Origin: an uncultured Thermoplasmata archaeon
Lineage (GTDB): Archaea > Thermoplasmatota > Thermoplasmata > Lutacidiplasmatales > UBA184
DNA: 64,000 bases
Reading direction: 5' to 3'
Assembly: GCA_963749205.1 (NCBI GenBank)
Contig: CAVVLW010000011.1
Coordinates: 4,367 to 68,366 of the forward strand
Under the pieces are notes generated by a model, which made no database searches, was not told the origin of the DNA, and worked only from the letters and a program-made list of their open reading frames with translations. Position numbers and translations under genes: made by a program. Positions within the stretch are counted from its first letter, which is position 1. Each line of letters starts with the position of its first letter. This document shows, piece after piece, positions 713 through 50,720 of the stretch.

Positions 713-1400
713 TGCGACTGCGCGAGCGGGTCCGCAACGGCCGCCTCAGCGAACCCTCGAGCCCGCAGGCGACAGGAATCGCACGTCCCGCAGGGAGTTC
801 GACCACCGGCGTAGCAGCTCCAGGTGAGCGACCAGGGCACACCGAGCCGTTCTCCCCAGCGAACGATGTCGGCCTTGGATTTGGTGAGCAGGGGGGCGCG
901 AACGCGGAAGCGCACCTTCCCCTCTACCCCTGCCTTGGTCGCCACGCGCGCCAGTCGTTCGAATGCCTTCAGGAACGCGGGCCGGCAGTCCGGGTAGCCG
1001 GAGTAGTCGATGGCATTCGCCCCGATCACGATCGTGTCGAGTCGGTGGCTTTCGGCGTACCCCAGCGCGATCGCAAGGAGGATCGTATTCCGGGCGGGAA
1101 CGTAGGTGGACGGGATCTTTTCCTGGCGCACCGGCCGGGAGGAATCCTTCGCCGTCGGTCGGTCAACGACGAATCGAGCAGGGGACCGAGCGGGAGGTGG
1201 AGGACGACGTGGCGTTGGACCCGGTAACGCCGCGCGAGGGCGCGCGCGGACCGTACCTCTCGCGCATGCCGTTGCCCGTAGACGACCGTGAGCGCATGCA
1301 CCGGTCCGCGTTCCCTAGCGACGAGCGCGAGGCAGGCCGCCGAGTCCATGCCTCCCGAGAGGAGGACGACGTTCCCGTGCCGGGTCCGGGCAGAGCTCAT
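709..1400 (-). CDS. queC: 7-cyano-7-deazaguanine synthase QueC (archaeosine/queuosine precursor); reading frame broken near 1105-1140
   Basis: N-terminal part ([24 protein letters not shown]...YGQRH...) sits in the frame of ORF 1026..2168. C-terminal part ([14 protein letters not shown]...[10 protein letters not shown]...CGTCDSC zinc site) sits in ORF 709..1131. Total length of 692 nt is not a multiple of 3, so one indel is implied. ATGA overlap with the next gene at 1397-1400. Confidence 0.8.
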
Positions 1401-2059
1401 CCGACCCCTCCCCACGCGGCAACTATCACCGCCGCGATCGCGACCGCCGAGAGCATCCCGAGGAAGTTCGTGGCGCCTTTCGAAAGATAACCGCGGTTCT
1501 CGAGCGTCTCCCCGAGGACGGAGTCGACCTGGCAGCCGAGGAACCCCGCCACGACCACCGCGCCGAGGAAGACGGGCGCCGCCGGCACCGCCGCGGCGAA
1601 CAGCCGGAATAGCGCGAGGCCGACGATCGCGGTGAGACCTGCGCCCACGAATCCCCAGGCCTCCCCGACGGCCGAGACCCCTCCGTTGGTGCCGGGCGTG
1701 ACGGGCCGTAAGGTGAGGATGCTGCGTGCTTTGCCCGCGAGCACGCCGAGCTCGCTCGCAAAGGTGTCCGCTGCGCCGAACGCGAGGGCGCTCGCGTAGA
1801 GCACCGCGAGCGTCGGGGCAGGGATCAACGGTGGGGCCCAGCCACCGGCGATCGCGAGGCCGGTGGGAAGGACGATGTGCGCGACGACGTTCGAGACCCC
1901 CCGCTCCCCCGCCGTGCCCTCCTGCACGTTCTTGCTTCGTTTCTCCTGGATCCGGAACCGGGTGGCCAGTACGCTTGCGACGACGAAGAGGATCAGGAGC
2001 GCGAGGAAGGGGAAACCTACCAGGACCACGATCACGACCCCGAAGGCCGCGGCGACCAC
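1397..2059 (-). CDS. DUF92/TMEM19-like integral membrane protein
   Basis: 220 aa, 5-6 predicted TM helices, conserved basic loop RFRIQEKRSKNVQEGTAGERG. Start ATG overlaps the queC start region. Confidence 0.5.
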   Translation of the reverse strand: MVAAAFGVVIVVLVGFPFLALLILFVVASVLATRFRIQEKRSKNVQEGTAGERGVSNVVAHIVLPTGLAIAGGWAPPLIPAPTLAVLYASALAFGAADTFASELGVLAGKARSILTLRPVTPGTNGGVSAVGEAWGFVGAGLTAIVGLALFRLFAAAVPAAPVFLGAVVVAGFLGCQVDSVLGETLENRGYLSKGATNFLGMLSAVAIAAVIVAAWGGVG

Positions 2060-12979: not shown

Positions 12980-14133
12980 TCTGGAGTACGGAAATTAGTT
13001 CCCTCTCCCGCCCAAGAAGAACCTGCCCTCCTGCCTTCCACTGGAAAGGGGGGTTCGAAGGGGGGACCGACCTTCGGTTCCTGGCAGCGTCTCCTTCCCC
13101 CGAGGTCCTTCGGTCGCGTGACCAAGCTCACCGACCGTCGCATCGAGTGGCTGATCCGCCAGGCGCAAGGAACCGTTCGGCCTCGCGAGACGGTCGGTCA
13201 GATGGCCGCCCGCTGGGGCGTCACGCCTCGCTGGCTGAGGAAGCTCCTTCAACGGTGGCGCCAGTCCGGGGTCGTGCCCCACCTCAACCCCCGACGGCGA
13301 CCTCCCGGGCCTCCGCTGACCGACGAGGAGAAGCAGGCGATAGAGGAGGAACACCGTCGGTCGCCTCGCGGCGCCACGAAGCTCTGGCGAGCTCTGGCGC
13401 GACGCGGAGTCCGCATCCCGCACGAGAAGGTCTACCGCTACGCCCGGAGCCAAGGCTGGGCGGTACCCAACCCGCGCAAGCAGCGACCCCGGGGCCGATG
13501 TCGATACGAGCGGGAGCACACGGGCTCTCTGGTGCACACCGACTTCCACCGAACCAGCCTGGACCATCCCCACGTCATCCTCTACGAGGACGACGCCAGT
13601 CGGAAGGTGCTGGCCGGGGGCGAGTTCCCCGAGCAGTCGACCGAGCATGCGATCGAGATGCTCGAGGAGGCGATCGCGGAGGCGGCGAGCTGGGGCCTCT
13701 CGATCCGCGAGGTGAACACCGACCGGGGGACGGAGTTCTTCGTCAGTCCGAAGGTCGACCGGCCGGACGCCAGCCCGGGGCAGTTCCAGCGATTCCTGGC
13801 GGAGCACGGGATCCGCCATGTCGTCAGTCGGCTGAAGAACCCACAAACCAACGGCAAGCTAGAGCGGTTGTGGTACCAGTACCGACCGCCATCGGTGGCG
13901 GTTCCCCACGCTGGGGGAGTTCATCGAGTGGTACAACGACCAGATCCACGACGCGCTGTGGCTGGAGATGTACGAGACCCCGCGGGAGGCGTTCCAGCGG
14001 AAGCTACCCCCCGAGGTCCTCCTGGGACTCCACCTACGTCAGGTCGCGGCGATCGCAGGAGAGGCATGACCGACGGAGATCCTCCCCCGAACCCCCACCG
14101 TTCAAGTACCGGAACTAATACCCGTACTCAACA
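12980..14133 (+). mobile_element. IS481-like insertion sequence (about 1154 bp) with imperfect terminal inverted repeats
   Basis: Left end TCTGGAGTACGGAAATTAGTTCC (12980-13002) against the reverse complement of the right end TGTTGAGTACGGGTATTAGTTCC (14111-14133): 19/23 matches, with a core 17-mer matching 15/17. Flanked by perfect 15-bp direct repeats. Encodes one rve-type DDE transposase. Confidence 0.75.
13118..14069 (+). CDS. DDE transposase/integrase (rve core), frame broken near 13880-13900
   Basis: N-terminal HTH (VTKLTDRRIEWLIRQAQG...), catalytic core ...HTDFHRT...NTDRGTEFF...NGKLERLW. The C-terminal ...FPTLGEFIEWYNDQIHDALWLEMYETPREAF is in a different frame (F P T L starts at 13902). 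GTG start assumed. Confidence 0.75.
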
Positions 14134-15242: not shown

Positions 15243-16210
15243 TTACGGCGCGCCCGCCCCTGTGGAACTCGCGAGCACGGCAGGAAACCCTTGACGGACG
15301 GTGGGAAACTTGAGTTCCAGACCCAACAGGTCCTTCGCCCGCTGATTGCGGGCTCTACGAGAGCTCGTGAACGTCTCCGCATTCACGCGCCCTACCATGA
15401 GGGACGCGAGCCATACCGGGACGGTCCGCCGAACCGGAGGTCGTCCGAGGCTTGCTGCCAAGCTTGCTTGCCACGCAGATTGGGTCAGCGGCTCGTCGTC
15501 GACGATGAGGAACTCCTCTCCCCGGTGAGCGCGCTCCACCGCGGCCCGAATCCCTTCCCCGACGTCCGTCGACGACACCAACGACGAGTAATTGGACCCG
15601 AGGCCGACCAGCACCCCCCGGTTCTGGCGAATTCGGTTAGCGAATCCCGGGAACCAGCCGGACGGCCCGTAAATGAGTCCCATCCGGAGCGTGACGAGCG
15701 GAAGCCCCCACTCCCGCTGCGCCTCGGCGAGGAGCGCACGGGAGAGGACACTGAGGTGCGAATAACCGCTGGGCGCCGAAGCGCGGGGCGTGGATTCGTC
15801 GAACCATGCTTCGCCCGTCGGGGCGTAGTCTTCGAGGCCGCTCAGTGCCACATAGGTATGGAGCGAGGCCGCCTGGGCACGCACCTTCGAGAGGAGGAAG
15901 GCGACCATTCGTCGCCGCACCTCCGCCCCACGACGGGCCTTGCCCAAAGTCAGCGGCCGGAGAATCGGACCTGCGTTGCGTCCACGACGGCCGTGATCCC
16001 TTCCATCGCCGCTTGCCAGTCGCCTTGGCCCGACAGGTCTCCGACGACCGTGGCAACTTGTTGGCCCTGGAATAGTTTCGCTGCCTCGGGTCGCCGGATC
16101 AGCGCCCGAACGGTGTGGCCGTGCGCAGCCAGTGCCCGGGTGGCCGCTTCGCCCACCAGGCCGGTCGATCCGACGACGAGGACGGTCTCGGACACCACAA
16201 CCTCGCTCAA
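15243..16210 (-). CDS. NmrA-like NAD(P)-binding SDR-family protein (atypical epimerase/dehydratase); frame broken near 15948
   Basis: N-terminal Rossmann motif VLVVGSTGLVGEAATRALAAHGHTVRALIRRPE (ORF 15950..16210) continues as ...PLTLGKARRGAEVRR...YG... in ORF 15243..15947. The two ORFs are in different frames. Confidence 0.65.
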
Positions 16211-16318: not shown

Positions 16319-17379
16319 ATGGCAGTCGATCCAGACAAGTTGAACCAGTTCGTCGGAAAGTTTCTCGGCGATGTCGGTGCTGCTATCCACGGACCGACCA
16401 TCTTGATCGGAGAACAACTCGGTCTCTACAAGGCCCTGGCCGCGGGCGGACCAATGAGCTCGGAGCGACTCGCGGAAAAGACCGGCATTCCAGAACGCTA
16501 CGCCCGCGAGTGGCTCGCGGGGCAGGCAGCTTCCGGGTACGTCAGAGTACCAGTGCCGGCGCCGGACGTTACTGGATGACGCCCGAACAGGCGTTCGCCT
16601 TGACGGTGGAGGACAACCCGGTCTACATTCCGGGGGTGTACTACACGATCGGGTCCGTCTACAAGGACCAACGGAAGATCGCCGAGGCGATCAAGTCCGG
16701 CAAGGGGTTCGGCTGGCACGAACACCACAACGACCTCTTCATCGGCACGAAGAAGTTCTTTCGACCCGGCTATCTCGCCAATCTCGTGAGTTCCTGGCTC
16801 CCGAGCCTCGAGGGGGTCGTGCCGAAGCTCGAGGCGGGCGCCCGCGTCGCTGATGTCGGCTGCGGTCTCGGCGCCTCGACCATCATCATGGCCAAGGCGT
16901 TTCCGAAATCCAAGTTCATCGGCTTCGACTACCACTTGGAGTCGATCGAATGGGCCCAGAACGATGCGGTGACGGCGAGTGTGACCCCCAACACGGACTT
17001 TGAGGTCGCGACCGCGAAGGATTTCCGGGGGAAGGACTACGACCTCATTTGTTTCTTCGACTGTCTCCACGACATGGGCGACCCCGTCGGTGCGGCGCAC
17101 CACGCGCTCAAGACGCTCAAACCGGACGGGACGCTGATGGTCGTCGAACCGTTTGCCCACGACCGGGTCGAACAGAACATGAATCCGGTCGGCCGGATCT
17201 TCTATAACGCGTCCCTCTTGGTCTGCGTCCCCGCGTCCCTATCTCAGGAGGTCGGGAAAGGTTTGGGGGCTCAGGCGAGCGATGCGAGCCTGTTCGAAGT
17301 GTTCCGCGACGCGGGATTCACGCGGGTTCGGAAGGCGATCGAGACGCCATTCAACCGGGTCTTCGAAGCACGGCCCTGA
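16319..17379 (+). CDS. SAM-dependent methyltransferase with N-terminal winged-helix dimerisation domain; frame broken near 16545-16560
   Basis: The wHTH part (...ERLAEKTGIPERYAREWLAGQAASGYV) lies in ORF 16319..16579. The methyltransferase part with motif I VADVGCGLGAST and ...ICFFDCLHDMGDP lies in ORF 16510..17379, in another frame. Confidence 0.7.
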
Positions 17380-17506: not shown

Positions 17507-18899
17507 ATGACCGGCATTCGAAAGGAGACCGACAGCCTCGGCGAGGTCGACGTTCCCGCAGACAAGCTTTGGGGAGCGCAGACCCAGCGATCCCTTGAAT
17601 ACTTCAGCATCGGCCAAGACCTCATTCCGCGGGAGATGATCACCGCTTACGCGACGCTGAAGAAGGCCGCCGCGATCGCCAACCATGACGGCCATCGGCT
17701 GGCCGAGGGACCCTACCGGTTGATCGGTACAGGTCTGCGACGAGATCCTTGCCGGCCAGCATCACGACATGTTTCCGCTTCACGTTTGGATGACGGGGAG
17801 CGGCACCCAGTTCAACATGAACGTGAACGAGGTGATCTCCAACCGCTGCTGCCAACTTGCTGGGACGCCGCTCGGAAGCAAATTGCCGGTGCACCCGAAC
17901 GACCACGTTAACATGGCCCAATCGACCAATGACACCTTCCCGTCCGCCATGTACATCGCCGCGGCCATGAGCGTGAAGCAGAAGCTGGTCCCGGCGGTAA
18001 AGGCGCTCGAGGCGGCGATCGCTTCGAAGGCCGAAGCGTGGCGCGACATCGTGAAGATCGGGCGGACTCACCTGCAGGACGCCACGCCCCTGGCCCTCGG
18101 CCAAGAGTGGTCCGGTTATGCGGGAATGCTGGCGGAGGACCTGGAGCGGATCGAGGACGCATTGAAGGGCGTGTACCGACTCGCCTTGGGCGGGACCGCG
18201 GTCGGGACCGGCATCAATTCGGCGCCCGGTTTCGGCGAGGCGGCGGCGGCCGAGATCGCCCGGTCCACGGGTCTGCCCTTTGTAAGCGCACCCAACAAGT
18301 TCGCGGTGCAGGGCGCCCACGACGCGCTGGTGCAGCTTTCCGGTACGCTTCGTACGCTCGCCGGCTCGCTCTACAAGATCGCGAATGATATCCGACTTTT
18401 GTCCTGCGGTCCTCGAGCGGGGTTCGCCGAGCTGTCGATCCCGGAGAACGAGCCCGGGTCGTCCATCATGCCGGGCAAGGTGAACCCGACGCAGGCCGAG
18501 GCGCTGACGATGATCGCGGTCCAGGTGATGGCGAACGACGTCGCCGTCGGCTTCGGCGGCGCAGGAGGTTACCTCGAGATGAACGTCTACAAGCCCCTGA
18601 TGATCTACAACGTCACCCACTCGATCACGATCATGGCGGACGGGTGTACCAACTTCCGCAAGTTCTTGATCGAGGGGACGGAGCCGAATCGGAAAAAGAT
18701 CCAGGAGTACGTCGACCGCTCCCTCATGCTCGTGACCGCTCTCTCGCCGGTCATCGGCTACGACAAGGCGTCACAGATCGCGCACTATGCCTTGGAAAAC
18801 GACCTCACACTGAAGGCCGCCGCGCTGAAGCTGGGCTTCGTGACCGAAGAAATGTTCGACCGAGTGGTCGACCCGGCGAAGATGATCAAACCGCAGTAG
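17507..18899 (+). CDS. fumC: fumarate hydratase class II; frame broken near 17727-17731
   Basis: [33 protein letters not shown]... (ORF 17507..17911) then ...[35 protein letters not shown]...[13 protein letters not shown] (ORF 17769..18899). Class-II fumarase signature. Confidence 0.9.
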
Positions 18900-19207: not shown

Positions 19208-20102
19208 TCAAGGGCCCGTCCCGGGCGGAGGCATGAGCTTCGGCTGGATGGCTTCGGCGGGACTCGTCGGCGCGGTCGGCTTTTCCGGTAGGGGAAGGAA
19301 TTCCTGAAGTCGGCCTTGAGCCGCCTGGACCGCGGGCAGGTCCCCCCCGGGACCCCGTAGGACGTACGCCACGCCGACCGCCAGCAGCGCTCCGGCGAGC
19401 GGACCCGCGAGGTAAATCCAGTAGTGAGCGAAGTTCCCGAGGATGAGGTCGGGCCCGAACGACCGCGCCGGATTTCATCGACGCGCCGCTGATCGGGCTC
19501 CCCCAGAGGCCCGCGAGAGCGATGTATCCTCCCACCGCGAGCGCTGCGATCGGACCCACGTTCTGTGCCTTGGAGGCCGTTCCGAGGATGACGCTCACGA
19601 GCCCGAGCGTGAGGACCAGCTCCATGACCAGCGCCTGGACGTCCGAAATTCCCGGACCGGGGTGGGTCGCACCCAGCATCCCGACCCTACCGAACATCAG
19701 GGCGAGGAACCCGCACGCCAGCGCCGCCCCGAAGAGTTGGGAGCCGATGTACCCGGGGACTCGCCTCCAGGGAAAGTCCCCTCGGGCCGCAAAGGCGATG
19801 CTCACAGCCGGATTGAGGTGCGCTCCCGAAACCGCTCCCATGAACAGGATTACGGCCATCACCATGAGGCCGGGCGCCACGACGGCCGCGGTGGGAGAGA
19901 CCGAACCCGGGACTACCGCGTTCACTACCGTCGCGCCGGCAGCGACGACGACCAGGAAGAACGTTCCGATGACCTCGGCGAACAGCCGCCGCCACTCGAG
20001 TCGAGGGTCGTCGAATGCTTGGCGGTTGATCGGAAACCGCCATAGCAGGCTCGTCACCGTGGTCCGATCGGCCACCACGTCGGGGGGAGTTGCGACCGTC
20101 AT
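19208..20102 (-). CDS. aqpM: aquaporin/aquaglyceroporin (MIP family); second NPA motif lost to a 1-nt homopolymer frame change at about 19471-19478
   Basis: First motif SGAHLNPAVSIAFA is in the frame of ORF 18933..20267. After ...GSPISGASM the read frame gives KSGAVV..., but the +1 frame gives NPARSFGPDLILGNFAHYWIYLAGPLAGALLAVGVAYVL (canonical NPAR plus TM6). The minus-strand sequence atgAAAtcc would read atgaatcc (M-N-P) with one A fewer. Confidence 0.85.
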
Positions 20103-20556
20103 GGCGAAAGAGTCCTCCGGAAGCGCACCCTGGGTAACGAGCGGGGTCGGGAGTCCGCTTCCCCCATGCCGTGAGGGGATTGGGGGGAGTGATATCCGCC
20201 TTTCGAACGGTCGAATCTCCCAACCCCAAGATCCCCCGTCCCTCGGCATGCCGGGACCCTTCCACATTCGTCATCACGGTGAGCATCTGACCGAGAGGGG
20301 ACGCACGAGTTCCCCGTGAAATTGATCGGCGGGGTGAATCAGTCCAGTCCGTCTCCGGGCGACGCGTCCCGGGCGGATTCCGCCGTCATCCTCTCCTCAA
20401 GGACGCTGCGGACCACGATCATCCCGGAGAATGGCATCGGGCGGCAGCCCGTGTGATGAGTGCATTACGATCGGCAGGGCTCGAACGATACACCCCCAGC
20501 GGGTGCCGTTCCGGGCCCCGCCACCTTTTCCTCCTTCCGGTGTTCCCGCACCAACA

Positions 20557-22648
20557 ATGAGCGACCGGGACCAGACATGCATCAACACGATTCGATTCCT
20601 CGCAGTGGATTCGGTTGAAAAGGCAAAATCGGGTCATCCCGGCCTTCCTCTTGGTGCCGCTCCGATGGCCTACGTCCTCTGGGACCGCTTCCTCCGCCAC
20701 AACCCGGCCGATCCCCACTGGCCGAATCGCGACCGATTCGTCCTCTCGGCCGGCCACGGGTCGGCCCTGCTCTACGCGCTGCTCCACCTCACGGGCTACG
20801 ACCTTCCCATCGAGGAACTCCAACGATTTCGGCAGTGGGGTAGCCGGACCCCGGGCCACCCCGAGTACGGCCGCACGCCCGGCGTCGAGGCAACGACCGG
20901 CCCGCTCGGACAGGGATTCGCGATGGGGGTCGGGATGGCGATCGCCGAGCAGCACCTGGCGGCGGCGTGGAATCGGGACGGGTATCCGCTCGTCGACCAC
21001 TGCACGTACGGGATCGTCTCCGACGGCGACCTCATGGAAGGCATCTCCTCCGAGGCCGCGTCGCTCGCCGGCGCACCTCGGGCTCGGGAAGTTGATCTAT
21101 CTTTACGACGATAACCACGTCTCGCTCGAAGGGCCGACCATCTGGGCCTTCACGGAGGACGTCGGGCGTCGATTCGAGGCCTACGGTTGGCAGGTGCTGC
21201 GGGTGGCCGGACGGCAACGACCTCGCGGCCATCGAGAAGCGCCCTCGGGAAGCGCAGAGCGGACACCGCACGACCCAGCCTCGATCTGCGTCCGTACCCA
21301 CCTCGGCTACGGCAGCCCCGTCCAGGACACCCGCGAGGCCCACGGCGAGCCCCTCGGGCCCGGCCAATCTGCGGGCGACGAAGGAGAAGCTGGGCTGGCC
21401 TCTCGAACCCACGTTCCTCGTGCCAGCGGAGGCCCGTGCTCACTTTCGTGAGGCGCTGGAACGCGGCGCTCGGTGGCAGAAGGAGTGGGAGACGCTCCGT
21501 GACCGCTTCGGTCTCAGCAACCGGCCGAGCGGGCGCGGACAGATCGAAGACCAGTACGCGGGAACGCTCCCGGCAGGCTGGGACTCGGACCTGCCCGCGC
21601 TTTCGTCCGAGCGACGGACCGACTGGCGACCCGCGACGCCTCCCAGAAGGTACTCACCGCACTCGGACCCAAGCTCCCCGCGCTCATCGGGGGCGCAGCG
21701 GACCTTTCCCCTTCTACGAAGACGCTGCTCCCCGGGTTCCCGGATTACTCCGCGACCGACGGGCTTGGACGTAATTTCCACTTCGGCGTCCGGGAGCACG
21801 CGATGGTCAGCGCGCTCAACGGCATGGCGCTCCACGGCGGGCTCCTCCCGTACGGGGGGACGTTCCTCGTCTTCTCGGACTACGCCCGGGGGGCGCTCCG
21901 GCTCGCTGCGCTGCAGCAAACGCACGCGATCTTCGTCTTCACCCACGACAGCATCGGCATGGGGGAGGACGGACCGACCCACCAACCCATCGAACAGCTC
22001 GTGAGTCTACGCGCGATCCCGGACTTCTGTCTCTATCCGGCCGGCCGACGCGAACGAGACCACCGCAGTTTGGCGGCTCGCCGTCCAGCGACCGGGTCCC
22101 ACGGCACTCGTCTTCACTCGTCAAAAAGTCTCCGTCCTCGACCCGGCTCGCTATCCGATCGCGGAGGGGGTCCCTCGGGGCGGATACGTTCTCTCGGAGG
22201 CGCCGGCGGGTCCGCCAGGCGGTCGTCCTCGTCGCGACCGGTTCGGAGGTCTCCCTCGCCCTCGATGCGCAGGCGAAGCTCGGCGACCTCGGTGTGGCGG
22301 CGCGGGTCGTGTCTCTGCCGTGCTGGCGCCTGTTCGACGAGCAATCGCCGGCGTACCGCGACTCGGTCCTCCCCCCCGGCACTCCCGAAGGTCTCCATCG
22401 AAGCGGGGACGACCCTCGGGTGGGCGCGGTACGTCGGTCCCGGCGGGGCATCGATCGGGATCGACCATTTCGGTGCCTCGGCTCCCGGGCCGGTGCTTCA
22501 GCGGGAGTTCGGCTTCACCATGGACCACGTCGCTCGAAGTGACGATGCGAGTGCTGGGGCGGCCGAAGCGGGGCGGGTCCGCCGTGACCAGTCTCTCCGA
22601 GCTTCTCTCCCGCGGCCAATCGCCGTGGCTGGATTACATCCGACGTAG
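20557..22648 (+). CDS. tkt: transketolase; several frame changes; 3' end uncertain (about 22560-22648)
   Basis: [42 protein letters not shown]...[20 protein letters not shown]... then pieces in ORFs 20615..21451, 21420..22004, 21803..22648 (...[12 protein letters not shown]..., ...[34 protein letters not shown]..., ...[10 protein letters not shown]). Confidence 0.85.
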
Positions 22649-25352
22649 CTTCTCGACGAGCGGCGAGCTCGAGCGGATGGTCGAAGAAGGACGGGATCAC
22701 CGGGGTAACGATCAATCCGACGATCTTCGAGAAGGCGATCGCAGGAAGCCATGATTATGACGACGCGTTGAAAGATCTCCTCGACCCACGAACCCCACCT
22801 CGGTCCGGCCGAGCTCTATGAGCGGCTGGCGGTGGAGGATGTCCGTCCGCGCGGCGGACGTCCTGCGGCCGGTGTTCGACCGCACCGAGGGCAAGGACGG
22901 TTTCGTCAGCCTCGAGGTCGCTCCCGGCCTCGCCCACGATACTGCGGGCACTGTCGCCGAGGCGCGCCGGCTCTGGGCTGAGGTCGATCGGCCCAACCTG
23001 CTGATCAAGGTCCCGGGAACGCCCGAAGGGGTCCCAGCGATCGAGGAGTTGCTCTCCGAAGGGATCAACGTCAATGTGACCCTTCTGTTCTCCCTCTCTC
23101 AGTACGAGGCCGTCGCCCAGGCGTACCTGCGTGGGGTCGCGCGGGCCCGGGACCCGGCGCGGGTCGCGTCGGTCGCGTCCGTCTTCGTCAGCCGGATCGA
23201 CACCGCCGTGGACCGCGCCCTCGACGCCGCGAACGTGGCGACGGCTACCGCCCTCAAGGGAACGGTCGCCCTCGCCAACTGTCGCGTGATCTATGCGCGA
23301 TTCCAGGAGATCTTTCAAGGGCCGCTCGTTCGCCACTCCGAGTGCCCGGGGAGCGCGGCCTCAACGTGTGCTCTGGGCCAGCACGAGCACGAAGGACCCC
23401 CACTACCGCGACACGCTCTACGTCGAGGAGCTCATCGGACCCGAGACCGTCGACACGATCCCTCCCGCGACTCTTGCCGCGTTCGAGGACCACGGAGTCG
23501 TCCGTGGGGACACGGTGACCCAAGGGATCGCGCAGTCGCTCGAACAGCTCGTCCATGTGGCCGCGGTCGGGGTCAATCTCGCCCAGATCACCGAGGACCT
23601 GCAGACCGAGGGGGTCGGGCTGTTCGCGGACTCGTACGCCCTTCTGCTCCGAACCCTCGCGAGTAAGAAGGAAGCGACTTCTCGCGGGAAACCTCGACCC
23701 CGAATCCTGGAACCTCGGTAGCAGATAGCGGCCGGGTCGAGGCGGTTGAGGCAAGCTGGCAGGCGGCGCGGACCGCCGAGCGATTCTGGAAACTGGATGC
23801 GACCCTCTGGCCCGCTGCCCCCCGGAGCGACGTCGTCTCTCGCATGGGGTGGCTTCAGCTCCCCGAACTGATGCACGACCAGCTTCCCCGGCTCGAGCAC
23901 TTTCGCGGAAGAGGTCCGTTCCGAGGGATTCCGCCACGCCGTGGTTCTGGGGATGGGTGGCTCGAGCCTCGCTCCCGACGTCCTACGCGGGATATTTGGC
24001 AGCCGTCCGGGGTATCCCGAGCTGCTCGTTCTCGATAGCACTCATCCCGGACGCGATCGCCGCGGTCCATCGGAGTATCGACCCGGCGCACACCCTCTTC
24101 CTGGTCTCGAGCAAGTCGGGCACGACCACCGAGCCGCTCGCGTTCTACCGGGTACTTCTCGGAGACAGTCCGCGCGAGCGGCATCGCGCCGGGACGTTGT
24201 TTCGTCGGCGGTCACGGACCCAGGTACTCCGCTCGAGAAGCTCGCTCACGACGAAGGGTTTCGCGCAGTCTTCCTCGCCGTCCCGACGGTCGGGCGGAGG
24301 TACTCTGCGCTCACGATGTTCGGCCTCGTCCCCGCGGCAGCTCATCGGGTTCGACGTGCGTCTGCTCCTCGACCGCGCGTGGACGATGGCCGAAGGCGTG
24401 CGCGCCCTCGGTGCCGGTCGATGAAAATCCTGGGCTATCGCTCGGCGCGGTCCTCGGCGAACTCGCTACCCACGGCAGAGACAAGCTCACGTTCTACGCG
24501 GGGAAGAGCTTCGCCCCGTTCCCGGTCTGGGTCGAGCAATTGGTCGCCGAGAGCACTGGCAAGATCGGCAAGGGGATCGTGCCGGTCGTCGACGAGCCGC
24601 GGGTCGCTCTCGAGCACTACGGGGCGGACCGACTGTTCGTGGAGATCCAGGAAACCGGCCACCTCGACGGTCCGCTCGCGACGCACACGAGTCGACTCGA
24701 GGCTGCGGGTTTTCCGGTGGTGCGCATCCGGGCGCCGGACCGGCTCGCCGTCGGCGAGGAATTCTTCCGCTGGGAGATGGCCGTGGCGAGTGCCGGGATC
24801 GTCCTCGGGATCAACCCGTACGACCAGCCCGATGTCGAGTTCGCCAAGGAGCTCGCTCGCAAGGCGATGGCGCAGCCGTCCGGCGCCACGGGAGCGGCCG
24901 ATGTGGTGACGGTTCGAATCGATAGCGGGGCAGACTTCCACGCGGCCGTCCGGGAATGGCTCGATTCGGCCCGCCCCGGGGATTACGTCGGGATCCAGGC
25001 CTATCTGGCGCCCACCACCGAGACCTCGAGCGCCCTCGATCGGGTGCGCCGCCGACTCCTCGAGCTTCTGAACGTCGCGACGACGCTGGGCTACGGTCCC
25101 CGCTTTCTCCATTCCACCGGGCAGCTGCACAAGGGCGGTCCGAACACCGGGCTCTTCCTCCAGCTGATCGACGCACCCCAGCACGACCTCTCGGTGCCAG
25201 GAGCCGGGTACACGTTCGGGGAGCTCATACGGGCCCAATCGCTCGGGGACTACCAGGCGCTCCGTCAGAAGCAGCGCCGGATCCTTAGAGTGGACCTCGG
25301 GTCCGACGTCCGCGGCGGCCTTCATCATCTCATCGAGGTGCTGCGTGCCTGA
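22545..25352 (+). CDS. tal-pgi: probable bifunctional transaldolase / glucose-6-phosphate isomerase (Tal-PGI fusion type); several frame changes, including an in-frame TAG near 23719 that may be an artefact
   Basis: Tal part: ...[33 protein letters not shown]..., ...[66 protein letters not shown]... PGI (SIS) part: ...[11 protein letters not shown]...GWLQLPELM...[22 protein letters not shown]...[22 protein letters not shown]... Total about 936 aa, the length of known Tal-PGI fusions. Confidence 0.75.
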
Positions 25353-25963
25353 GTGTCTCGCTCCTCCTGTGGGACGTCGGAGGAGTGCTGCTCTCGAACG
25401 GCTGGGACCGGACCGCCCGCGCAGCCGCGGCCGCTCGACTTCAACCTCGACGTCGGCGGAACTGGAACGACGACACCAACTGGTCGAGACGGCGTTCGAG
25501 ACCGGACGGCTCGATTGGGAACGGGTATCTCGCAGCGACCGTCTTCTATGCGCCCCGGTCGTTCACCTCGGACGCGTTCCGGAAGTTCATGCGGGAGCAG
25601 TCCCGAGGCAATACCCCGCTCTCGCGACTGCCCGAGCGCTCCGGAGCGAGGGAAGGTACGTGATGGCGGCGCTGAACAATGAATCCCGAGAGCTGAACGA
25701 GTACCGCATCCGGACCTTCGGACTCACCGAGGTGTTCCACGCGTTCTTCAGCTCGTGTTATACCGGCTACCGGAAGCCCGACCCCGCCGCCTACCGGTAC
25801 GCGCTCGACATCGCTGCAACGTACGCCCCCTGAGACCCTCTTCCTCGACGACCGGCCCGAGAACATCTCGGCCGCCGCCCGGCTCGGTCTTCGCACGCTC
25901 GAAGTGCGGGACCCCGAGCGACTTCGGGAAGAGCTGGCGCTCGCGGGCGTCACGTCGGGGTAG
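25353..25963 (+). CDS. HAD-superfamily phosphatase (DxGGVL subtype); several frame changes
   Basis: LLWDVGGVLLSNGWD (HAD motif I variant), ...YRKPDPAAYRYALDIA... (motif III region), ...LFLDDRPENI... (motif IV). Stop TAG 25961-25963. Confidence 0.55.
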
Positions 25964-25973: not shown

Positions 25974-26883
25974 ATGGAACTGGGAATGGTCGGGCTCGGA
26001 AAAATGGGCGCGAACATGACGGTACGGTTGGTCGAGGGAGGACACCACGTGGTGGGCTACGCTCGGACGAAGGCCGTGGTCGACGCGGTCGTAGCGCAGG
26101 GGGCCTCCGGCGCGGACTCGCTCGCGAATCTCGTGCAGCAGCTCGAGCCCCCACGGGTCGTCTGGCTGATGATCCCGTCGGGCGACCCCGTCGACCAGAC
26201 GCTCGACCAGCTCCATCCGTTGCTCGCGCCCGGCGACCTCGTCGTGGACGGGGGAACTCCTACTACCGGGACACGCTCCGTCGATCCGCCCGGGTCACCG
26301 GTTGGGGCATTCCGGTACGTGGATGTCGGGTACGAGCGGAGGGATCTGGGGGCTCAAGGAAGGGTATTCGATGATGGTCGGCGGCGACGACGCCGATGTC
26401 GAGCGCGTTCGGCCGATCCTCGAGACGCTCGCGCCCGGCCCCAAGCTCGGGTGGGGCCACATGGGTCCCGTCGGCTCCGGTCATTTCGTCAAGATGGTCC
26501 ACAACGGGATCGAGTACGGAATGATGCAGGCGTACGCCGAAGGCTTTGCCGTGCTCCAGGGGAAGACGGAGTTCGCGTTGGACCTGCATCAGGTCGCGGA
26601 GGTCTGGAGGTACGGCAGCGTCATCCGGTCGTGGCTGCTCGAGCTGACCGAGGACGCGCTCGCCGAGAATCCGACGCTCGCCGGCATCGAACCGTGGGTC
26701 GCGGACTCCGGGGAGGGTCGATGGACGGTGACGGAGGCGATGGACCTCAACATCCCCGCCCCGGTGATCACGCTCGCCCTGCAAGCGCGGCTGCGATCGA
26801 GGGAGGCCGACCCGTTCACCGAGCGGCTCCTCGCAATGATGCGCAACAAGTTCGGCGGCCACGACGTGAAGCGGGAGAGCTAG
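25974..26883 (+). CDS. gnd: 6-phosphogluconate dehydrogenase, decarboxylating (short Gnd/YqeC-type); frame change near 26270-26300
   Basis: MELGMVGLGKMGANMTVRLVEGGHHVVGYAR... (NAD(P)-binding) then ...GIWGLKEGYSMMVGGDDADVERVRPILETLAP...HFVKMVHNGIEYGMMQAYAEGF... GGAGGAG box 25964-25970 precedes the ATG. Confidence 0.85.
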
Positions 26884-26885: not shown

Positions 26886-28344
26886 ATGGGGAGCCCCGGT
26901 CCCGAGCGGCACTTGTTCGTGGTGTTCGGCGCGACCGGGGACCTGATGCAGCGCAAGCTCCTTCCCGTGCTGTACCGACTGAACGCGAGGGGAAAGCTCC
27001 CGACCGGAACGGTCGTCCTCGGGGTCGCGCGCCGGCCGATGGACGACTCGGCCTTCCGTGGCATGGCCCTCGCGCTCGCTCACTGCGGAAAAGGTCGCAG
27101 AGCCCGGGCCGCTCCGCTCCTTCTGCGATGCGACTCTCTTCTACCAAGCGGTCGCGGACGAAACTGCGCCGAGCTTCGCGGGCCTGCGGCGACGGGTCGA
27201 ACAACTGGAGCAGGAGCACGGTCTGGTGGGAAATCGAATCTTTTACCTCGCGCTGCCCCTCGAAGCGTTCGCCCCCACCCTGGCCGGGCTGGGCGAAGCG
27301 GGGCTGAACGCCGGCCCCGGCTGGACCCGCGTCGTGATCGAGAAGCCGTTCGGGCGGGACCTCGCATCTGCCGAAGCACTGAACGGGCTCGTCCACCGGT
27401 ACTTCGAGGAGAAGCAGGTATTCCGGATCGACCACTATCTCGGCAAGGAGACCGTGCAGAATCTCCTGGTCTTCCGGTTTGCCAATATGTTCATCGAGTC
27501 GCTCTGGACGCGCGAACGGATCGACCACGTGACGATCACCGTCGCGGAGTCGCTCGGCGTGGAAGGGCGCGCCCGCTACTACGAAACGTCGGGGGCACTG
27601 CGTGACATGATCCAGAACCACGTGACGCAGGTCCTGACGCTCATCGCGATGGAGCCTCCCGCGACCCGGGACGAGGACTCGATCCGGAACGAGAAGGTCA
27701 AGGTGCTCCAAAGCATCGTCCGCTTCGGACCCGGTGACGTGGTTCGGGGCCAGTACACCTCGGGGAACATCGACGGAGCGCCGGTCTCGGGTTATCGGGA
27801 GGAACCCGGAGTCGCTTCCGAATCGGACACCGAGACGTTCGTTGCGCTCCGGTCTGAAAATCGCGAACTGGCGGTGGCAGGACGTCCCGTTCTTCCTGCG
27901 AACGGGCAAGCGACTCCCCGCGAAGTCAAGCTGGGTCGTGCTGACCTTTAAGGCCCCCCCGTGACGTTCTTTCAGACGGCCCAGGAGTACAACGCGAACC
28001 CGGACCGCATCTCGATCCTCATCCAGCCCGACGAGGGGTTCGAGCTCGCGTTCGAGGTGAAGGTGCCCGGCCGGGAGATGCGCCTGCAGACCCATCGGAT
28101 GAAGTTCAACTATGCCGAGGTGTTCGGCGAGCTTCCGGACGGGTACGAGACGCTCCTGATCGACGTGATGCTGGGGGACCCCACCCTCTTCGTCCGCGCC
28201 GACGAGGTAGAGGAGTCGTGGCGCCTCTACGAACCGCTGCTCCGGTCGCCTCCCCCGCTGAAGTTCTATCCTGCGGGTTCGTGGGGACCCGAGGAGGCTC
28301 AGACGCTCGTCCAGGGGTGGGGGCACCGTTGGTATTACGGTTAG
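26886..28344 (+). CDS. zwf: glucose-6-phosphate 1-dehydrogenase (canonical Zwf); frame changes near 27060 and 27900-27960
   Basis: [22 protein letters not shown] (N-terminal dinucleotide motif), EKPFGRDL and the strictly conserved RIDHYLGKE at 27424-27450; C-terminal domain in ORF 27961..28344. Confidence 0.9.
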
Positions 28345-29110
28345 ACCGTAGGGCGCTCGTCTTCCCGGATCTCGATACCGCCAGCGCGGCCCTCGCCCGT
28401 CATCTCGTCACCACCGCGATCGCCTCCGTGCGTGAGCGAGGCGGCTTCTCGCTCGTAATCTCGGGCGGACGCACCCCGCTCGGACTCTACCGGCGCCTCG
28501 GAGGAGCCGCCGGTCGCCGTTTTCCGTGGAAGTCGACCGACCTGTTCTTCGCGGACGAACGCTGTGTTCCATCGCGGAATCCCGAGAGCAATTTCGGCGT
28601 GGCGTGGGACACGTTCCTTTCCCGGGTGACGATCCCGCGCCACCGGATCCACCGACTGCGCGGGGAGCTGAAGCCTCCCTCGGAAGCCGCGGCGCGGTAC
28701 GCGCGCGCACTCGGGCATCTCGCGCTCCCGGGAAACTCGCTTCCTCCACGTTTCGACGTGGTCTTGCTGGGGATCGGTCCGGACGGTCACACCGCGTCCG
28801 TGTTCCCCGGGCAGTCCCGCGGCGCACGAGGAGCGGCGCGCCGTGGTCGCGGTGCCGCATTCGGGGTTGCGTCCGTTCGTCCCCCGGTTGACGTTGACGC
28901 CCCCGGCCCTCTCCTCGTCCCGAGAGGTCTGCTTCCTCGTCGCGGGAGCGGACAAGGCGGACGCGGTAGCCGGCGTCTTCGAACCGGTCCTGCGGGGGAC
29001 CTCGGCCTTCCGGCGAGCCTGTGCGGCCCCCGGGGCCCGCATTCTGGTTTCTGGATTCTGCGGCGGCGGACGGGCTTCCGTCCCCGAGGGCGGGTCGCCG
29101 CTCCAACTAG
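28329..29110 (+). CDS. pgl: 6-phosphogluconolactonase (Pgl/DevB); frame changes near 28830 and 28990
   Basis: ...FSLVISGGRTPLGLYRRL...DLFFADERCVP...FDVVLLGIGPDGHTASVFPG..., then ...VCFLVAGADKADAVAGVFEP..., and in the +1 frame ...LPASLVRPPGPAFWFLDSAAADGL*. Probable TTG start overlapping the zwf stop. Confidence 0.8.
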
Positions 29111-29121
29111 CTCCGGGCCCG

Positions 29122-29819
29122 TCACACGGGTCGGGCCGGAGTGACGTCGGCCCAGAGCCGAACCCCGCCGACCATCGCGTTCCGATTATCGCCGCGCTCC
29201 GCCCGGGGCGGGAGCTCTCGGAGCTTGCGAACGTTCCCCCTCCCAGCACCACGTAGTCGGGTTCGAGCGCGTCCGAGAGGGTCTTCGTGACGGCGAAGAC
29301 CTCCTTCTGCCACTTCCTCCGACCGAGGCGCTCCAGACCATCCTCGCCAACAAAATCCTCGTACGTCTTTCCTTTCTTGTACGGGAGATGGGCGAGTTCC
29401 ATGGGCTCGAGCTTCCCCTCGACGATCATCGCGCTTCCTCGGCCGGTCCCGAGTCCGAGGAAGAGCATCCGCCCGCCGTGGTAGCTCCCGAGGGCCTGCA
29501 TGGCCGCGTCGTTCACGACCCGGGTCGGGCGACGGAACGCGTTCTCGAACCCGAACCCCACCCACCCTTTCCCGAGGTTCGGGGGTTCGGCCACGGGCCG
29601 GCCGTGGACGACAAGCCCGGGGTAGCCGACCGACACCAGGTCGTACCGTTCTCCTCTCAATCGTCGAGCCAGCCTCTTCACCATCTCACCGGGTTCAAAG
29701 TTCGGGCCGGAAGGGATCTTGATTTCTCTCCCCCCGTCCGAGAAACCCGCCTTCACGTGGCTCCCACCGACGTCGAGGACGAGAATTCGCTTCGGTCGTG
29801 GCGGACGTTTCGACCCCAT
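29122..29819 (-). CDS. glk: ROK-family glucokinase (polyphosphate/ATP glucokinase-like); frame change near 29170-29200
   Basis: RILVLDVGGSHVKAGF... (ROK N-terminal ATPase motif), ...RVVNDAAMQALGSYHGGRMLFLGLGTGRGSAMIV..., C-terminal ...GGGNVRKLRELPP...RGDNRNAMVGGVRLW in another frame. Only the first 230 codons of ORF 28341..29819 are real. Confidence 0.7.
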
Positions 29820-30708: not shown

Positions 30709-31731
30709 ATGTCGGATCCGATCGTGTCCGAGCACCTCGTCAAGGTCTACGGCGGGAAGATCCGCGCCGTCGACGACGTCAGCTTCAGCATCCAGGACGG
30801 GGAATTGTACGGCTTCCTCGGCCCGAATGGCGCGGGCAAGACGACCACGGTTCAGATGCTCACGGGGAACTTGCGCCTGACCGGCGGGCATGCGACCGTC
30901 GCCGGGGTGGACGTGGCCCGAGATCCGCTCAAGGTGAAGGAACGCATCGGCCTCGTCTTCCAGGAGTCGACGGCCGACCCCGACCTCACCGGTCGCGAGA
31001 ACCTCGAGCTCGCGGCCGCGCTGTTCCGTGTGCCGCTGCGGACGACGAAGTCCACGATCAATTCCCTGCTGGAGCGGATGCAGATCGGGGACGCTGCCGA
31101 CCGGCTCGTGAAGACGTATTCGGGGGGAATGCGCCGACGACTCGAGCTCGCGGTCGGGATCGTCCACTCTCCACAGGTCCTGTTCCTAGACGAGCCGACG
31201 CTCGGGCTCGACCCCCAGGGACGGGCGGGATTCTGGCGCTACGTGCTGGAGCTTCGGAAGGACCATGGGGTGACGGTCTTCGTCACCACCCACTACCTCG
31301 ATGAGGCCGATACGATGTGCGACCGCATCGCGATCATCGACCACGGCAAGATCGTCGCCACCGGCACTCCCTCCGAGCTCAAGGACCGGCTCGGCGGCGA
31401 CATCGTCACGGTCCGTACCGACCGGCCGCTCGGGCCGGAGGTGGAGACCCTGCTCAAGGGACTGCCCGGTGTCGTGTCGGTCACTTCCTCGGAGGGAAGC
31501 TACCGCGTCAAGGTGCCTCGGGGCGAGGAGTTGATCCCGATCCTGGTGGACGCCTGCACTCGCGCCGGGATCGGACTGGCCGGGGTCTCGCTCAAGCGTC
31601 CCAGCCTGGACGAAGTCTTCCTCGAGTTCACGGGCCGCGAGTACCGGGAGGACGAGGGAGGAATGAATGCGACCGACCGCGCGGTGCGGATCGGTCAGGT
31701 GCAGCAGGCGTTCGGGAGGAGCCGGCGATGA
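30709..31731 (+). CDS. ABC transporter ATP-binding protein (ABC-2/DrrA-type)
   Basis: Walker A GPNGAGKTT, signature YSGGMRRRLELA, Walker B VLFLDEPTLGLD, H-loop TTHYLDEAD. ATGA overlap with the downstream permease. Confidence 0.85.
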   Translation: MSDPIVSEHLVKVYGGKIRAVDDVSFSIQDGELYGFLGPNGAGKTTTVQMLTGNLRLTGGHATVAGVDVARDPLKVKERIGLVFQESTADPDLTGRENLELAAALFRVPLRTTKSTINSLLERMQIGDAADRLVKTYSGGMRRRLELAVGIVHSPQVLFLDEPTLGLDPQGRAGFWRYVLELRKDHGVTVFVTTHYLDEADTMCDRIAIIDHGKIVATGTPSELKDRLGGDIVTVRTDRPLGPEVETLLKGLPGVVSVTSSEGSYRVKVPRGEELIPILVDACTRAGIGLAGVSLKRPSLDEVFLEFTGREYREDEGGMNATDRAVRIGQVQQAFGRSRR

Positions 31732-32551
31732 TCCGGGAACTGAGCGCCCTCACCCATCGCGAACTGCTACGCCTCGCGCGGAACCCGCAGGCGATCATCA
31801 CCTCGCTCATGCTACCGATCCTCTACCTGATCCTCTTCGGACAGGCCTTCAACCTGGGCGCCGTCATCCCTAAGGCAGGACTGCTAACACTCACCCGCGG
31901 CGCTCCGACCTACTTCTCGTACTTCGCGGCAGGGATGGTCGGGTTCGTGGCGGTGACCGCGACGCTGTTCATCGGGGCGAACGTCATCTTCGACCGTCTC
32001 TTCGGTACGCTCAAGCGGATCGCGGCATCGCCGGCGACCGCGACCGAGATCTTCGGCTCGCGCCTCTTGGCGGGCATGATCCAGCCGGTCGGACTCGCCT
32101 TCCTCGTCCTCGGCCTCGCGGTCGTCCTGGGCCATGTCGGGCTCACGGGCCTGAGATCACCGCGTCGTTCTCGGCCGTCGGCGCGGTCGAGATCGTGCTC
32201 GCGATCGTGATCCTGTCGGCGATGTTCGCCTCGTTGTTCCTCGCGGTCGGGTTCTCCATCGAGCAGCCCCAGTCCTACTTCGCGGTCGTGAACGCGATCA
32301 ACCTGCCGGTCCTGCTAACGTCGGCGGCCCTCTTCCCCTGGGGGACGATGCCGGTGTGGTTCCGTAACATCGCCTCGTACAACCCGATCACGCTCGCGGT
32401 CAACGTCATCCGGGAGAATCTCTTCTCCGGGGCCACCGCCTATCATCCGGACACCCCCGCCGTTTACCTCCTGGGCCTCTTCGTGTGGGCCATGGCGATG
32501 TTCCTCCTCGCGACGCTGCTCGCGCGCCGCGCGCTCGCCCCCAAGGCGTAG
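31728..32551 (+). CDS. ABC-2-type transporter permease; frame change near 32150
   Basis: 6 TM helices; ...IITSLMLPILYLILFGQAF... then ...AVGAVEIVLAIVILSAMFASLFLAVGFSIEQPQSY... Confidence 0.7.
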
Positions 32552-34629: not shown

Positions 34630-35698
34630 ATGACCGACTCGGCGAGCCCTGCCCCCGAGCTCGATGTCAGTCTGCTCGCAGGCTTCGGATTCGAATGCCC
34701 GGCCCGACTGCGGGCTCTGCTGCTACGCCCAGCCACGGGCCGTCGCGGCCGAACGGTCGCGCCTCCTCCAAATCGTCCCGGAACTCCAGTTCGTCGGAGA
34801 GGGTCCAGACCGCTTCATCGCCGGGCACGGGGAGGGGGGCGCCTGCCAGTTGCTCTCGGGAAATCGCTGCCGCGCCCACACCGCCCGGCCTCACCCTTGC
34901 CCGGGAGTTTCCCGTCACCGCTCACGTCGGCGACCGCCTGCAAGCGACGGTCGTACTCTCCTGTCCGGGGGTCGACCTCTCGATGCTTCACTCTTCGCAG
35001 AGCGGAGGGGGGGGTCACGCACGCCCGGGATTTCCGACGGAAGTCGCCGCACTTCGAGAACGGGTGGACGCACGACGACCCTGCGGCGCTTGGAGGCAAG
35101 TCGCCGCCGCCGTCGCAAGATCCTGCGCGCGCTCACCGAGGAGGGCCGTTGGGAGGAGGAGGAAGATGTTCGACGCACCGTCCGACGGTCCTTGCCGATG
35201 CCCCCCGACGACCAGTTCCCGGTCGCTGACCCACCTTCGGCGGACGACGGACTGGACCTCCTGCCCCTCTTCTTCGACGGACGGGGCGCACCGGTCGCCC
35301 TCGCACGCGCGCTGGGGGGGTGGGAGTTCCTCGAACTCCGTCCGGAGGGGGGAGTCGCCCGTTCCCTCGGCGTGGTGCCGCCGCCGGACCGGGCGCCGTC
35401 CCTCGAACCGAACGCCGCCCGACTATTGGAGGGATATCTCGGCTACTGGCTGCGGCGCGACGCGCTCTTTGGCGCCGTTCACCTCCAAATGCTGCGGTCG
35501 GCGGAGGCGGGCACGGTCACCGAGCGGGTCGAGGGGGAGCTCGAAGGAATCGGCGCGCTGGTCCTTTCGCGGGCGGAGGTTCGTGCAAAGCTCCGGAGGG
35601 GGACGGTGGACCGACTCTCGCGGTCGGAGGTCGCGGACGGGATCCGGGCGACCGACCAGGACCTCCTCGACCGCGACAGCTGGGGAGACCGGTTCTAG
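34630..35698 (+). CDS. hypothetical protein, possibly a YkgJ/UPF0153-like Cys-cluster protein; frame changes likely
   Basis: ...LAGFGFECPAR then, in another frame, CGLCCYAQP... together give a FxCxxxCGxCC-like motif; the C-terminal 200 aa (...LLEGYLGYWLRRDALFGAVHLQMLRSAEAG...) have no recognisable family. Confidence 0.3.
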
Positions 35699-40813: not shown

Positions 40814-41825
40814 CTAGGCCCCGAGCCTGGCGCGGATCTCTGCGGCCGCGGTCTCCGGCGCGACCGGATTTACCGCGGTCCCCGCACCGAGCTCGAAGCC
40901 GTCGGCGCGAACGAGCCGCGGAGCGACCTCGACGTGCCAGTGGAACTCCGCCCCGGCGCCGGGTGCAGCCGCGAGGCCGTGGACGAACCAGTTGTAGGAC
41001 GCCTGTGGGTAGATCGCGTCGATCGCCCGGAGGACCGCCGGAAGCCGCTCGGCGAGCTGGTCGACCTCCGCGTCGGACGAGTCCGCGAAGCTGGTCGCAT
41101 GTCGCTTCGGTACCAACCAGACCTCGTAGGGGAATTCCGAGGCGAACGGGGCGAGGGTGGTGAACGCCCCGGCGTCCGAGACGATCCGCTCGTGGGCATC
41201 CCGCTCCGCGGCGACCATCGACTCGAGGAGGCATCCACCGGTCGCTCGGGATGCGTCCCGGCGAAATCCTTCCCGCTCCTCCTCGAACCTCGTCGGGACC
41301 TTCTCGGTCGCGACGAGCTGGGCGTGTGGGTGAGGGAGCGTTCCTCCGGATTCCGGCCCTCGGTTCTCGAACAACAGCACCGCACCGATGTCGGGCCGGG
41401 CGGTGAGGGACCGGACCCGCTCCCGAAAGAAGCGGAAGAGCGAGCGAAGCTGCTCGGGGGCGAGATAGGCCAGGTCGGGCGAGTGCTTCGGACCCGCGAC
41501 GATCACTTCGTGGACGCCCGCGGCCGGGGCCTGCTCGAAGAGAGGAGAGATTGGAGGGCGATCGGCGATCGACCTCGGCGATACCGTCGGAAACCGGTTG
41601 GGGATCGCCCGAACGGTCCACCCGGGTCCGTTGGGCGGGCTCCGGGCACCCCGAACGGCCGCGATCTCGAGGGGAGTGCTTCCCTCGTGACCCTCGCAGA
41701 ACGGGCAGTCCTCCTCAGCGGAACGAGGGGGAGGCGGGGCCGAGTAGTCGTTCGGCCGGGCGAGACCGGCCCTCGGCAACGATCCGCCAGTGCCCTGTGA
41801 GCGGGTCCTTCCGGAATTCGGACAT
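40814..41825 (-). CDS. galT: galactose-1-phosphate uridylyltransferase-like HIT-family nucleotidyltransferase (GalT family); frame change near 41780
   Basis: MSEFRKDPLTGHWRIVAEGR... (other frame) then ...CPFCEGHE... zinc site, ...HPHAQL (HxHxQ active site). 321+ aa. Confidence 0.7.
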
Positions 41826-41850
41826 GTACCGGGCCCGGAGCGGATGCACC

Positions 41851-50345: not shown

Positions 50346-50459
50346 CCGGGCTCGGACAATACGGCCGCCCGAGGTTATGGCGCTTCGGGCGTCCGGCAGA
50401 ACTGCTTCCGGCGCGCCCGAAAGGTAAAGGAGACGGAACGCGTTCCCTCGACCTGAGCG

Positions 50460-50720
50460 ATGGACGCCCCGTCCCGGCGCATTTCGTGGATCAGCCCGCC
50501 CCCCGAGATCTGCACGCTCTGCAAGGAGCCCCTCGGGCACCCGGAAGAGACGAGCTCGTGGAACGGAAGTCCCGCGCACCGAGACTGCGTCCGGGTCCAT
50601 CTCCTCCAGCGTGACCCGGCGTTCCGGGAGACTACGGAGGGATCAGAACCGAGCGACGACATCGGCGATTCGATCGATGGCGTCCTTCCCCGCGACGACG
50701 ACGAGACAGACTTCGAGTGA
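50460..50720 (+). CDS. small acidic protein with putative Cys2-His-Cys zinc ribbon (hypothetical)
   Basis: 86 aa: ...CTLCKEPLGHPEETSSWNGSPAHRDC... then DDETDFE tail. Lies between the regulator and the radical SAM gene. Confidence 0.25.
   Translation: MDAPSRRISWISPPPEICTLCKEPLGHPEETSSWNGSPAHRDCVRVHLLQRDPAFRETTEGSEPSDDIGDSIDGVLPRDDDETDFE

Follow-up and report, generated by a model that had tools for sequence, protein, structure and literature searches.

Results

The aquaporin gene and its frame break

The window, the 64,000-nucleotide stretch of archaeal DNA analysed here, contains at positions 19208–20102 an aquaporin (MIP) gene on the minus strand. This interval spans the aquaporin alone, whereas the first-pass annotation had filed all the affected genes of the window under it. 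One reading frame opens with an ATG at 20102, passes the first NPA box (HLNPAVS), and reads up to ...SPISGASMKSGAVV; a second frame takes over as NPARSFGPDLILGNFAHYWIYLAGPL... and ends at the stop at 19208. The break had been placed at the second NPA box, and this is confirmed: the frame switches at ATG AAA TCC (19472–19478), and dropping one A of the AAA at 19473–19475 gives S-M-N-P-A-R-S, restoring M-N-P-A-R. Both marks of the MIP family, a Pfam MIP match and two NPA boxes, were found, with HLNPAVS in frame and SMNPARS only once one A is removed. The spliced protein produces a single Pfam MIP alignment through the junction (residues 54–258, HMM positions 8–219 of 222, E=1e-42). Frameshift-aware alignment to six intact homologs called a single surplus nucleotide, near 19472, and no stop codons. 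The corrected 297-aa protein has more than 100 intact homologs at 80–87% identity, the closest of which are about 296–297 aa long, and those carrying names are mostly labelled Thermoplasmata archaeon. No near-identical copy of the corrected aquaporin was found in the protein database searched.

Frame breaks across the window

The window has a GC content of 67% and carries the archaeal markers TFIIB, aIF5B, Nog1, and TruD; its nearest relatives are Thermoplasmata MAGs. Codon usage, Pfam matches, and orthologue alignments together place approximately 65 frameshifts in 26 of its approximately 63 genes (Table 1), bearing out the earlier count of more than 25 broken genes. Filtering whole ORFs by GC3 proved too coarse to segment frames and gave way to a codon-usage Viterbi model with six coding frames and one non-coding state, which detected dozens of same-strand frame switches in the window. 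Since the same model found no frame switches within 34 annotated genes (42 kb) of the relatives' contigs, the switches go far beyond chance.

Pfam searches were run on frame-spliced protein reconstructions. A single Pfam alignment crosses the junction or junctions in queC, SDR, the methyltransferase HTH, fumC, the aquaporin, tkt, tal-pgi, HAD, gnd, pepP, mtnA, and uppS. For fumC, the Lyase_1 match covers HMM positions 1–311 when spliced versus 70–311 from the ORF alone; the transposase junction falls outside every Pfam domain. Frameshifts per gene were counted with our own frameshift-aware protein-to-DNA alignment (DP) to orthologues. In tkt and tal-pgi, each of the 23 events adds one base, and seven other genes aligned to the orthologues of the two syntenic relatives described below have no frameshifts in the window. 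The 5,628 aligned codons contain no in-frame stop, in keeping with the earlier remark that premature stops do not cluster. The remark that essential genes are hit also held, as the single-copy core genes aIF5B, Nog1, and TruD are affected.

Table 1. Genes of the window with frame breaks, with positions, strand, and the nature of each break or the evidence for it.
Feature	Coordinates	Strand	Frame breaks and evidence
queC	808..1402	-	at least 1 frameshift, ~1155-1176; Pfam QueC 11-197 crosses junction
rve-type transposase	13118..14065	+	probable +1 at ~13880, after integrase core; coding potential and motif continuity
SDR/epimerase	15249..16198	-	1 frameshift, one C missing at 15953; DP vs L084 Epimerase; intact in L127 (317 aa)
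HTH_65 + methyltransferase	16334..17369	+	1 frameshift, ~16543; Pfam HTH_65 23-90 crosses junction 70
fumC	17507..18899	+	one extra nucleotide, ~17729; DP and Pfam Lyase_1
aquaporin (MIP)	19208..20102	-	297 aa after correction; one extra nucleotide at second NPA box
aquaporin frameshift site	19472..19475	-	minus strand ATG AAA TCC, one A fewer gives M-N-P-A-R; +1 at 19472 by DP
transketolase (tkt)	20551..22583	+	11 frameshifts, each a single-base insertion
transaldolase-PGI fusion (tal-pgi)	22584..25352	+	12 frameshifts, each a single-base insertion
HAD hydrolase	25345..25960	+	5-6 frameshifts
6-phosphogluconate dehydrogenase (gnd)	25974..26883	+	3 frameshifts: 26249, 26308, 26328
glucose-6-phosphate dehydrogenase (zwf)	26886..28344	+	3 frameshifts: ~27075, 27853, 27953
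6-phosphogluconolactonase (pgl)	28329..29101	+	3 frameshifts: 28809, 28977, 29020; Logan L089 and ENA contig both differ there
ROK glucokinase (glk)	29084..29819	-	2 deletions: 29142, 29235; intact (256 aa) in Logan L089 and ENA contig
ABC-2 permease	31728..32551	+	1 deletion, 32153
CxxCxxCC-domain protein	34630..35698	+	3 frameshifts: 34698, 34900, 35070-35072; intact (354 aa) in L086
aIF5B (infB of the first-pass annotation)	38999..40762	-	3 insertions: 39521, 40302, 40671
galT	40817..41849	-	1 insertion, 41763; intact (344 aa) in ENA contig
dinB (IMS polymerase)	41854..42987	-	3 insertions: 42339, 42538, 42600; intact (377 aa) in ENA contig
KaiC-like gene B	43047..43770	-	1 insertion, 43104, near C-terminus
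truD	44743..46051	-	1 insertion, 45886; unbroken 436-aa ORF in ENA contig
HExxH protein	48137..48714	-	at least 1 deletion, 48436
HTH + CBS protein	49788..50521	-	1 deletion, 50410
Nog1-type GTPase	56006..57007	-	probable frameshift ~56880; NOG1_N Pfam match over junction sub-threshold
pepP (M24 peptidase)	60036..61147	+	1 frameshift, ~60525; Peptidase_M24 150-352 crosses junction 162
mtnA (IF-2B family)	62173..63127	+	2 frameshifts, ~62966 and ~63022; IF-2B 48-316 crosses both junctions
uppS N-terminus (gene runs off window)	63718..64000	+	1 frameshift, ~63940; Prenyltransf 51-93 crosses junction 74

Two genes required adjustment of what had been claimed. The queC break was found, although nearer to 1155–1176 than to the 1105–1140 given earlier. 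The KaiC-like gene is indeed broken, by the single event at 43104, while the frame change at 43757–43770 was rejected as a frameshift and is a real gene boundary, at which neighbouring KaiC-like genes meet with a 14-nt overlap. Another real gene boundary that resembles a frameshift lies at 14722–14725, where a 79-aa antitoxin-like gene and a PIN-domain gene share an ATGA overlap. A 680-aa minus-strand ORF at 32564–34606 was likewise rejected as a frameshifted gene; its length comes from an upstream extension that stays open by chance, as is typical in high-GC DNA. Within its region, orthologues place an MFS transporter at 32567–34015 (483–485 aa) and, in another frame, a CBS protein at 34132–34569 (146 aa). 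Exact-protein look-ups with four apparently intact ORFs returned no match, probably owing to a start-codon choice that differs from the recorded gene call.

Orthologues in syntenic relatives

The window was compared with two syntenic Thermoplasmata relatives, L081 (NCBI GCA_049802875.1) and L084 (JGI 3300062790), at approximately 85% amino-acid identity. All 16 syntenic genes are intact in these relatives, in the gene order of window 20.5–38.1 kb. The shared order is tkt, tal-pgi, HAD, gnd, zwf, pgl, ROK, F420-oxidoreductase, ABC ATPase, permease, MFS, CBS, CxxCxxCC, and HDAC, with TrmB and TFIIB following in L081. Beyond these two relatives, zwf, the aquaporin, and aIF5B each have more than 100 full-length homologs; those retrieved with the reconstructed zwf protein (more than 100) are nearly all 483–490 aa long. 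A JGI metagenome scan with the tal-pgi C-terminus yielded no same-species contig, its best full-length matches reaching 73–74%. A scan with fumC returned only bacterial-labelled relatives at 85–87% identity; with no synteny beyond fumC, they were rejected as a reference genome.

The first seven of these genes form a complete, bacterial-type oxidative pentose-phosphate cluster (tkt, the tal-pgi fusion, HAD, gnd, zwf, pgl, and ROK glucokinase) at 20551–29819 of the window, 3691–12921 of L081, and 3173–12401 of L084, and their order is kept in both syntenic Thermoplasmata relatives examined. The named near-full-length zwf homologs, among more than 100 in all, are labelled Thermoplasmata. To our knowledge, the oxidative branch is usually described as absent from Archaea.

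A segment of lower GC content, 63–65% versus 67–69% elsewhere in the window, extends over approximately 12000–20500 and includes the rve transposase, a VapBC-like pair, the methyltransferase, the aquaporin, and fumC. The fumC protein is 85–87% identical to fumC of MAGs labelled Acidobacteriota or Alphaproteobacteria (L001, L078). In L084, the SDR gene directly adjoins tkt. The methyltransferase–fumC–aquaporin block therefore looks like an insertion, possibly acquired horizontally.

Near-identical sequences from the same population

Three short Logan contigs of SRA run SRR28061373, found by exact-protein look-ups, total 5.6 kb and are 99.6–99.9% identical to the window. L086 matches window 34038–35723 at 1679 of 1686 positions (99.6%), and its three gap events all fall at the frameshifts of the CxxCxxCC gene, which is intact in this contig. 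L089 (window 28658–30848, 99.6% identity) has five indels, all within pgl or ROK; ROK is intact there and pgl is covered only in part. L127 (window 14695–16465, 99.94%) shows a sole difference, the C absent from the window at 15953, and encodes an intact epimerase; the break previously proposed at 15948 is thus matched to within 5 nt. The nine Logan indel differences are confined to genes for which a frameshift had already been inferred, and none of these genes is broken in the Logan contigs. No break persists where sequence of 99.6% identity or more to the window was found. A literature search on the run and analysis accessions found no publications.

A longer comparator, the 37.8-kb ENA contig ERZ25039509 contig_96347 (L087/L088), was reached through a 100%-identical fragment in the aIF5B search. 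Its merged sequence aligns to window 19899–50441 (30.5 kb) at 99.14% identity; the two differ by 162 substitutions and by 101 indels of one base. Each indel was assigned according to whether swapping in the other allele raised or lowered coding potential, which gave at least 47 window errors, at least 36 ENA errors, and 18 undecided. The same 16 genes carry 44 frameshifts in the window versus 15 in the ENA contig, at different sites. Of the genes broken in the window, galT, dinB, ROK, and the permease are intact in the ENA contig, and truD forms an unbroken ORF there. Conversely, frame breaks of the ENA contig hit the MFS transporters, HDAC, the S58 peptidase, and both KaiC-like genes, which the window has intact. 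Each window frameshift checked in the overlap at 29–50.4 kb is a difference from the ENA contig. Breaks of the ENA contig itself split aIF5B (112 + 481 aa), MFS (211 + 256), and the S58 peptidase (85 + 161); gnd and zwf are fused in one 655-aa call, and the aquaporin has a different indel, at 19941. As the lesions shift from one assembly to the other, they are not properties of the organism. Additionally, compensating +1/-1 pairs 13–25 nt apart distinguish the window from the ENA contig at 45364–45389 (truD) and 31418–31431 (ABC ATPase), leaving one assembly with a short out-of-frame patch and an unbroken ORF.

The only site discordant in both assemblies is 35066–35072, where the window reads GTGGACGCACGACGAC, the ENA contig GTCGACGCCGACGAC, and the Logan contig GTCGACGCGACGAC. 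Judging from these three readings, it is a local consensus-error hotspot around a GTCGAC site.

Substitutions between the window and the ENA contig fall at codon position 3 in 63% of cases, which indicates genes under purifying selection. Their density is approximately 1.8% over tkt–tal-pgi–HAD (19899–26000) versus approximately 0.2% elsewhere. For 20.5–26 kb, the ENA contig is the only same-population comparator and, at approximately 1.8% divergence, represents another strain. The substitutions in this stretch appear to be real polymorphism between strains, shaped by purifying selection, and the step in divergence near 26000 suggests, from the aligned sequences, a strain-level haplotype switch or a recombination tract.

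Error spectrum and density

Located window errors comprise 41 insertions and 6 deletions. Their density is approximately 1 per kb window-wide and 1 per 1–2 kb outside 21.0–25.9 kb. Within 21.0–25.9 kb (tkt, tal-pgi, and HAD), it rises approximately fivefold, to about 1 per 170 nt, and this stretch coincides with the approximately 1.8% divergence from the sister assembly. No consistent sequence motif was found at the insertion sites. Methylation-linked miscalls at GATC/TCGA were considered and dropped, given a weak enrichment of 5 in 50 mismatches inside GATC versus 3.3% expected.

Discussion

Weighing the explanations

The broken frames are almost certainly consensus errors in the assembled sequence, with the organism's genes intact. 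The breaks at 19.9–50.4 kb and the SDR break at 15953 are absent from independent same-population sequence, their positions are specific to the assembly, and the coding sequence is otherwise undamaged. The absence of these breaks from independent sequence, together with the lack of stop codons, supports the reading of assembly indel error that the first-pass annotation had preferred. Outside 14.7–16.5 and 19.9–50.4 kb, the assignment draws on homologs, Pfam matches, and analogy, and the breaks at 1–14.7, 16.5–19.9, and 50.4–64 kb are probably errors as well; by the same reasoning, the aquaporin break is presumably an assembly error too. The specific mode proposed earlier, in which the errors would mainly be homopolymer-length miscalls, fared less well and seems unlikely. 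It describes the aquaporin, where AA is read as AAA, and other short runs: two-base runs are likewise read as three at 34698 and 34900 (CC to CCC) and at 28809 (GG to GGG), and run lengths also change at 29235 (C6 to C5), 26249 (G6 to G5), and 15953 (CC to C). The majority of sites speak against it, since 30 of the 47 precisely located window errors lack an identical adjacent base and runs of four or more hold only four of the 47. Moreover, the C7 and C8 runs are the same in the window and L086, and 35066–35072 carries a 2-nt non-repeat insertion with an adjacent mismatch. This is also a point against the error reading in general: classic Nanopore R9 errors typically lie in homopolymers, and the window's errors, mostly outside them, are atypical in this respect.

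Two biological readings would leave the base calls standing. In genuine pseudogenisation, the strain, or at least its pentose-phosphate operon, would truly be decaying. The case for it is the tkt–tal-pgi–HAD block, which has 28–29 frameshifts and whose closest comparator is approximately 98.2% identical. In true decay, nonsense codons and deletions occur alongside relaxed substitution patterns, and all sequences of a lineage share the lesions. The lesions here are not fixed in the lineage, and they show neither a mixed spectrum nor relaxed constraint: nonsense codons are lacking throughout the aligned genes, substitutions concentrate at codon position 3, and identity to orthologues is undiminished (for tkt, 552/671 versus 549/669 for the ENA copy). 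Prokaryotic pseudogenes are biased towards deletions, the opposite of the 41:6 excess of insertions seen here. The breaks also affect core genes, among them aIF5B and TruD, and they disappear wherever sequence at least 99.6% identical is available. Decay is therefore highly improbable. The narrower version, in which a minor strain represented in the window truly carries the 28–29 single-base indels of tkt, tal-pgi, and HAD, has an equally slight chance of being correct; if it were, the oxidative pentose-phosphate operon would have been freshly silenced in one Thermoplasmata strain. Alternatively, programmed ribosomal frameshifting, transcriptional slippage, or other recoding could read through the breaks, many of which shift one way, by one extra base, with the protein conserved on either side. 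A single gene would then need as many as 12 shifts, at sites that share no slippery motif or homopolymer and lie in heterogeneous contexts. Orthologues are single-frame and lack the shift sites, as does near-identical DNA from the same population, so the difference lies at the DNA level and is specific to the assembly. The probability of recoding is accordingly negligible.

Origin of the consensus errors

Assembly error thus remains the preferred explanation, and its course may be outlined as follows. Single-base indels, mostly insertions, were left in a contig probably built from noisy long reads. The window's proteins are also reported, in an exact-protein index, on a contig of 0.2–1 Mb, which fits a long-read assembly as the source. 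Across the dense stretch at 21.0–25.9 kb, the assembler may have followed a low-coverage strain path whose consensus was poorly polished; the combination of high error density and approximately 1.8% divergence suggests a segment that varies among strains and was assembled from few reads. The sequencing platform is inferred, as is low coverage as the cause of the local density. Frameshift-ridden gene calls have been documented in long-read assemblies below approximately 40-fold coverage (PMC9262707), and this problem motivated tools such as proovframe (10.1101/2021.08.23.457338).

As biology, the breaks have no consequence, the genes being intact in the organism. Their importance is as a data-quality flag, as automatic annotation would mis-call, truncate, or label as pseudogenes approximately 40% of the window's genes. 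The public sister contig ERZ25039509 contig_96347 has the same problem at other positions. Other findings from the window that rely on intact ORFs, on gene length, or on a call of "pseudogene" should be discounted, or assessed anew once the frames have been corrected.

Comparison with known systems

The large share of recognisable genes that are interrupted recalls the reductive genomes of Mycobacterium leprae and recent endosymbionts. Unlike in reductive decay, stop codons are absent here, insertions and third-position substitutions dominate, and the breaks are missing from near-identical sequences. Recoding in prfB, dnaX, and IS3 transposases, and the poly(A) rescue of endosymbionts, relies on slippery or poly(A) sites that are conserved in orthologues, as a rule with a single site in each gene. 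The window resembles these systems in that an open frame carries on in a different phase and the product stays conserved over the junction, but it has neither the conserved sites nor the one-per-gene pattern. Furthermore, the shift in the window's transposase follows the integrase core and does not lie at an orfA/orfB junction.

The likeness to long-read (Nanopore or PacBio CLR) assembly errors covers several traits: single-base indels fragment conserved genes without nonsense mutations, the sites vary among assemblies of one organism, and the breaks vanish in more accurate sequence. Two features depart from the long-read norm, namely the predominance of insertions outside homopolymers, in place of the classic deletions in long homopolymers, and the very uneven density, which peaks over 21.0–25.9 kb.
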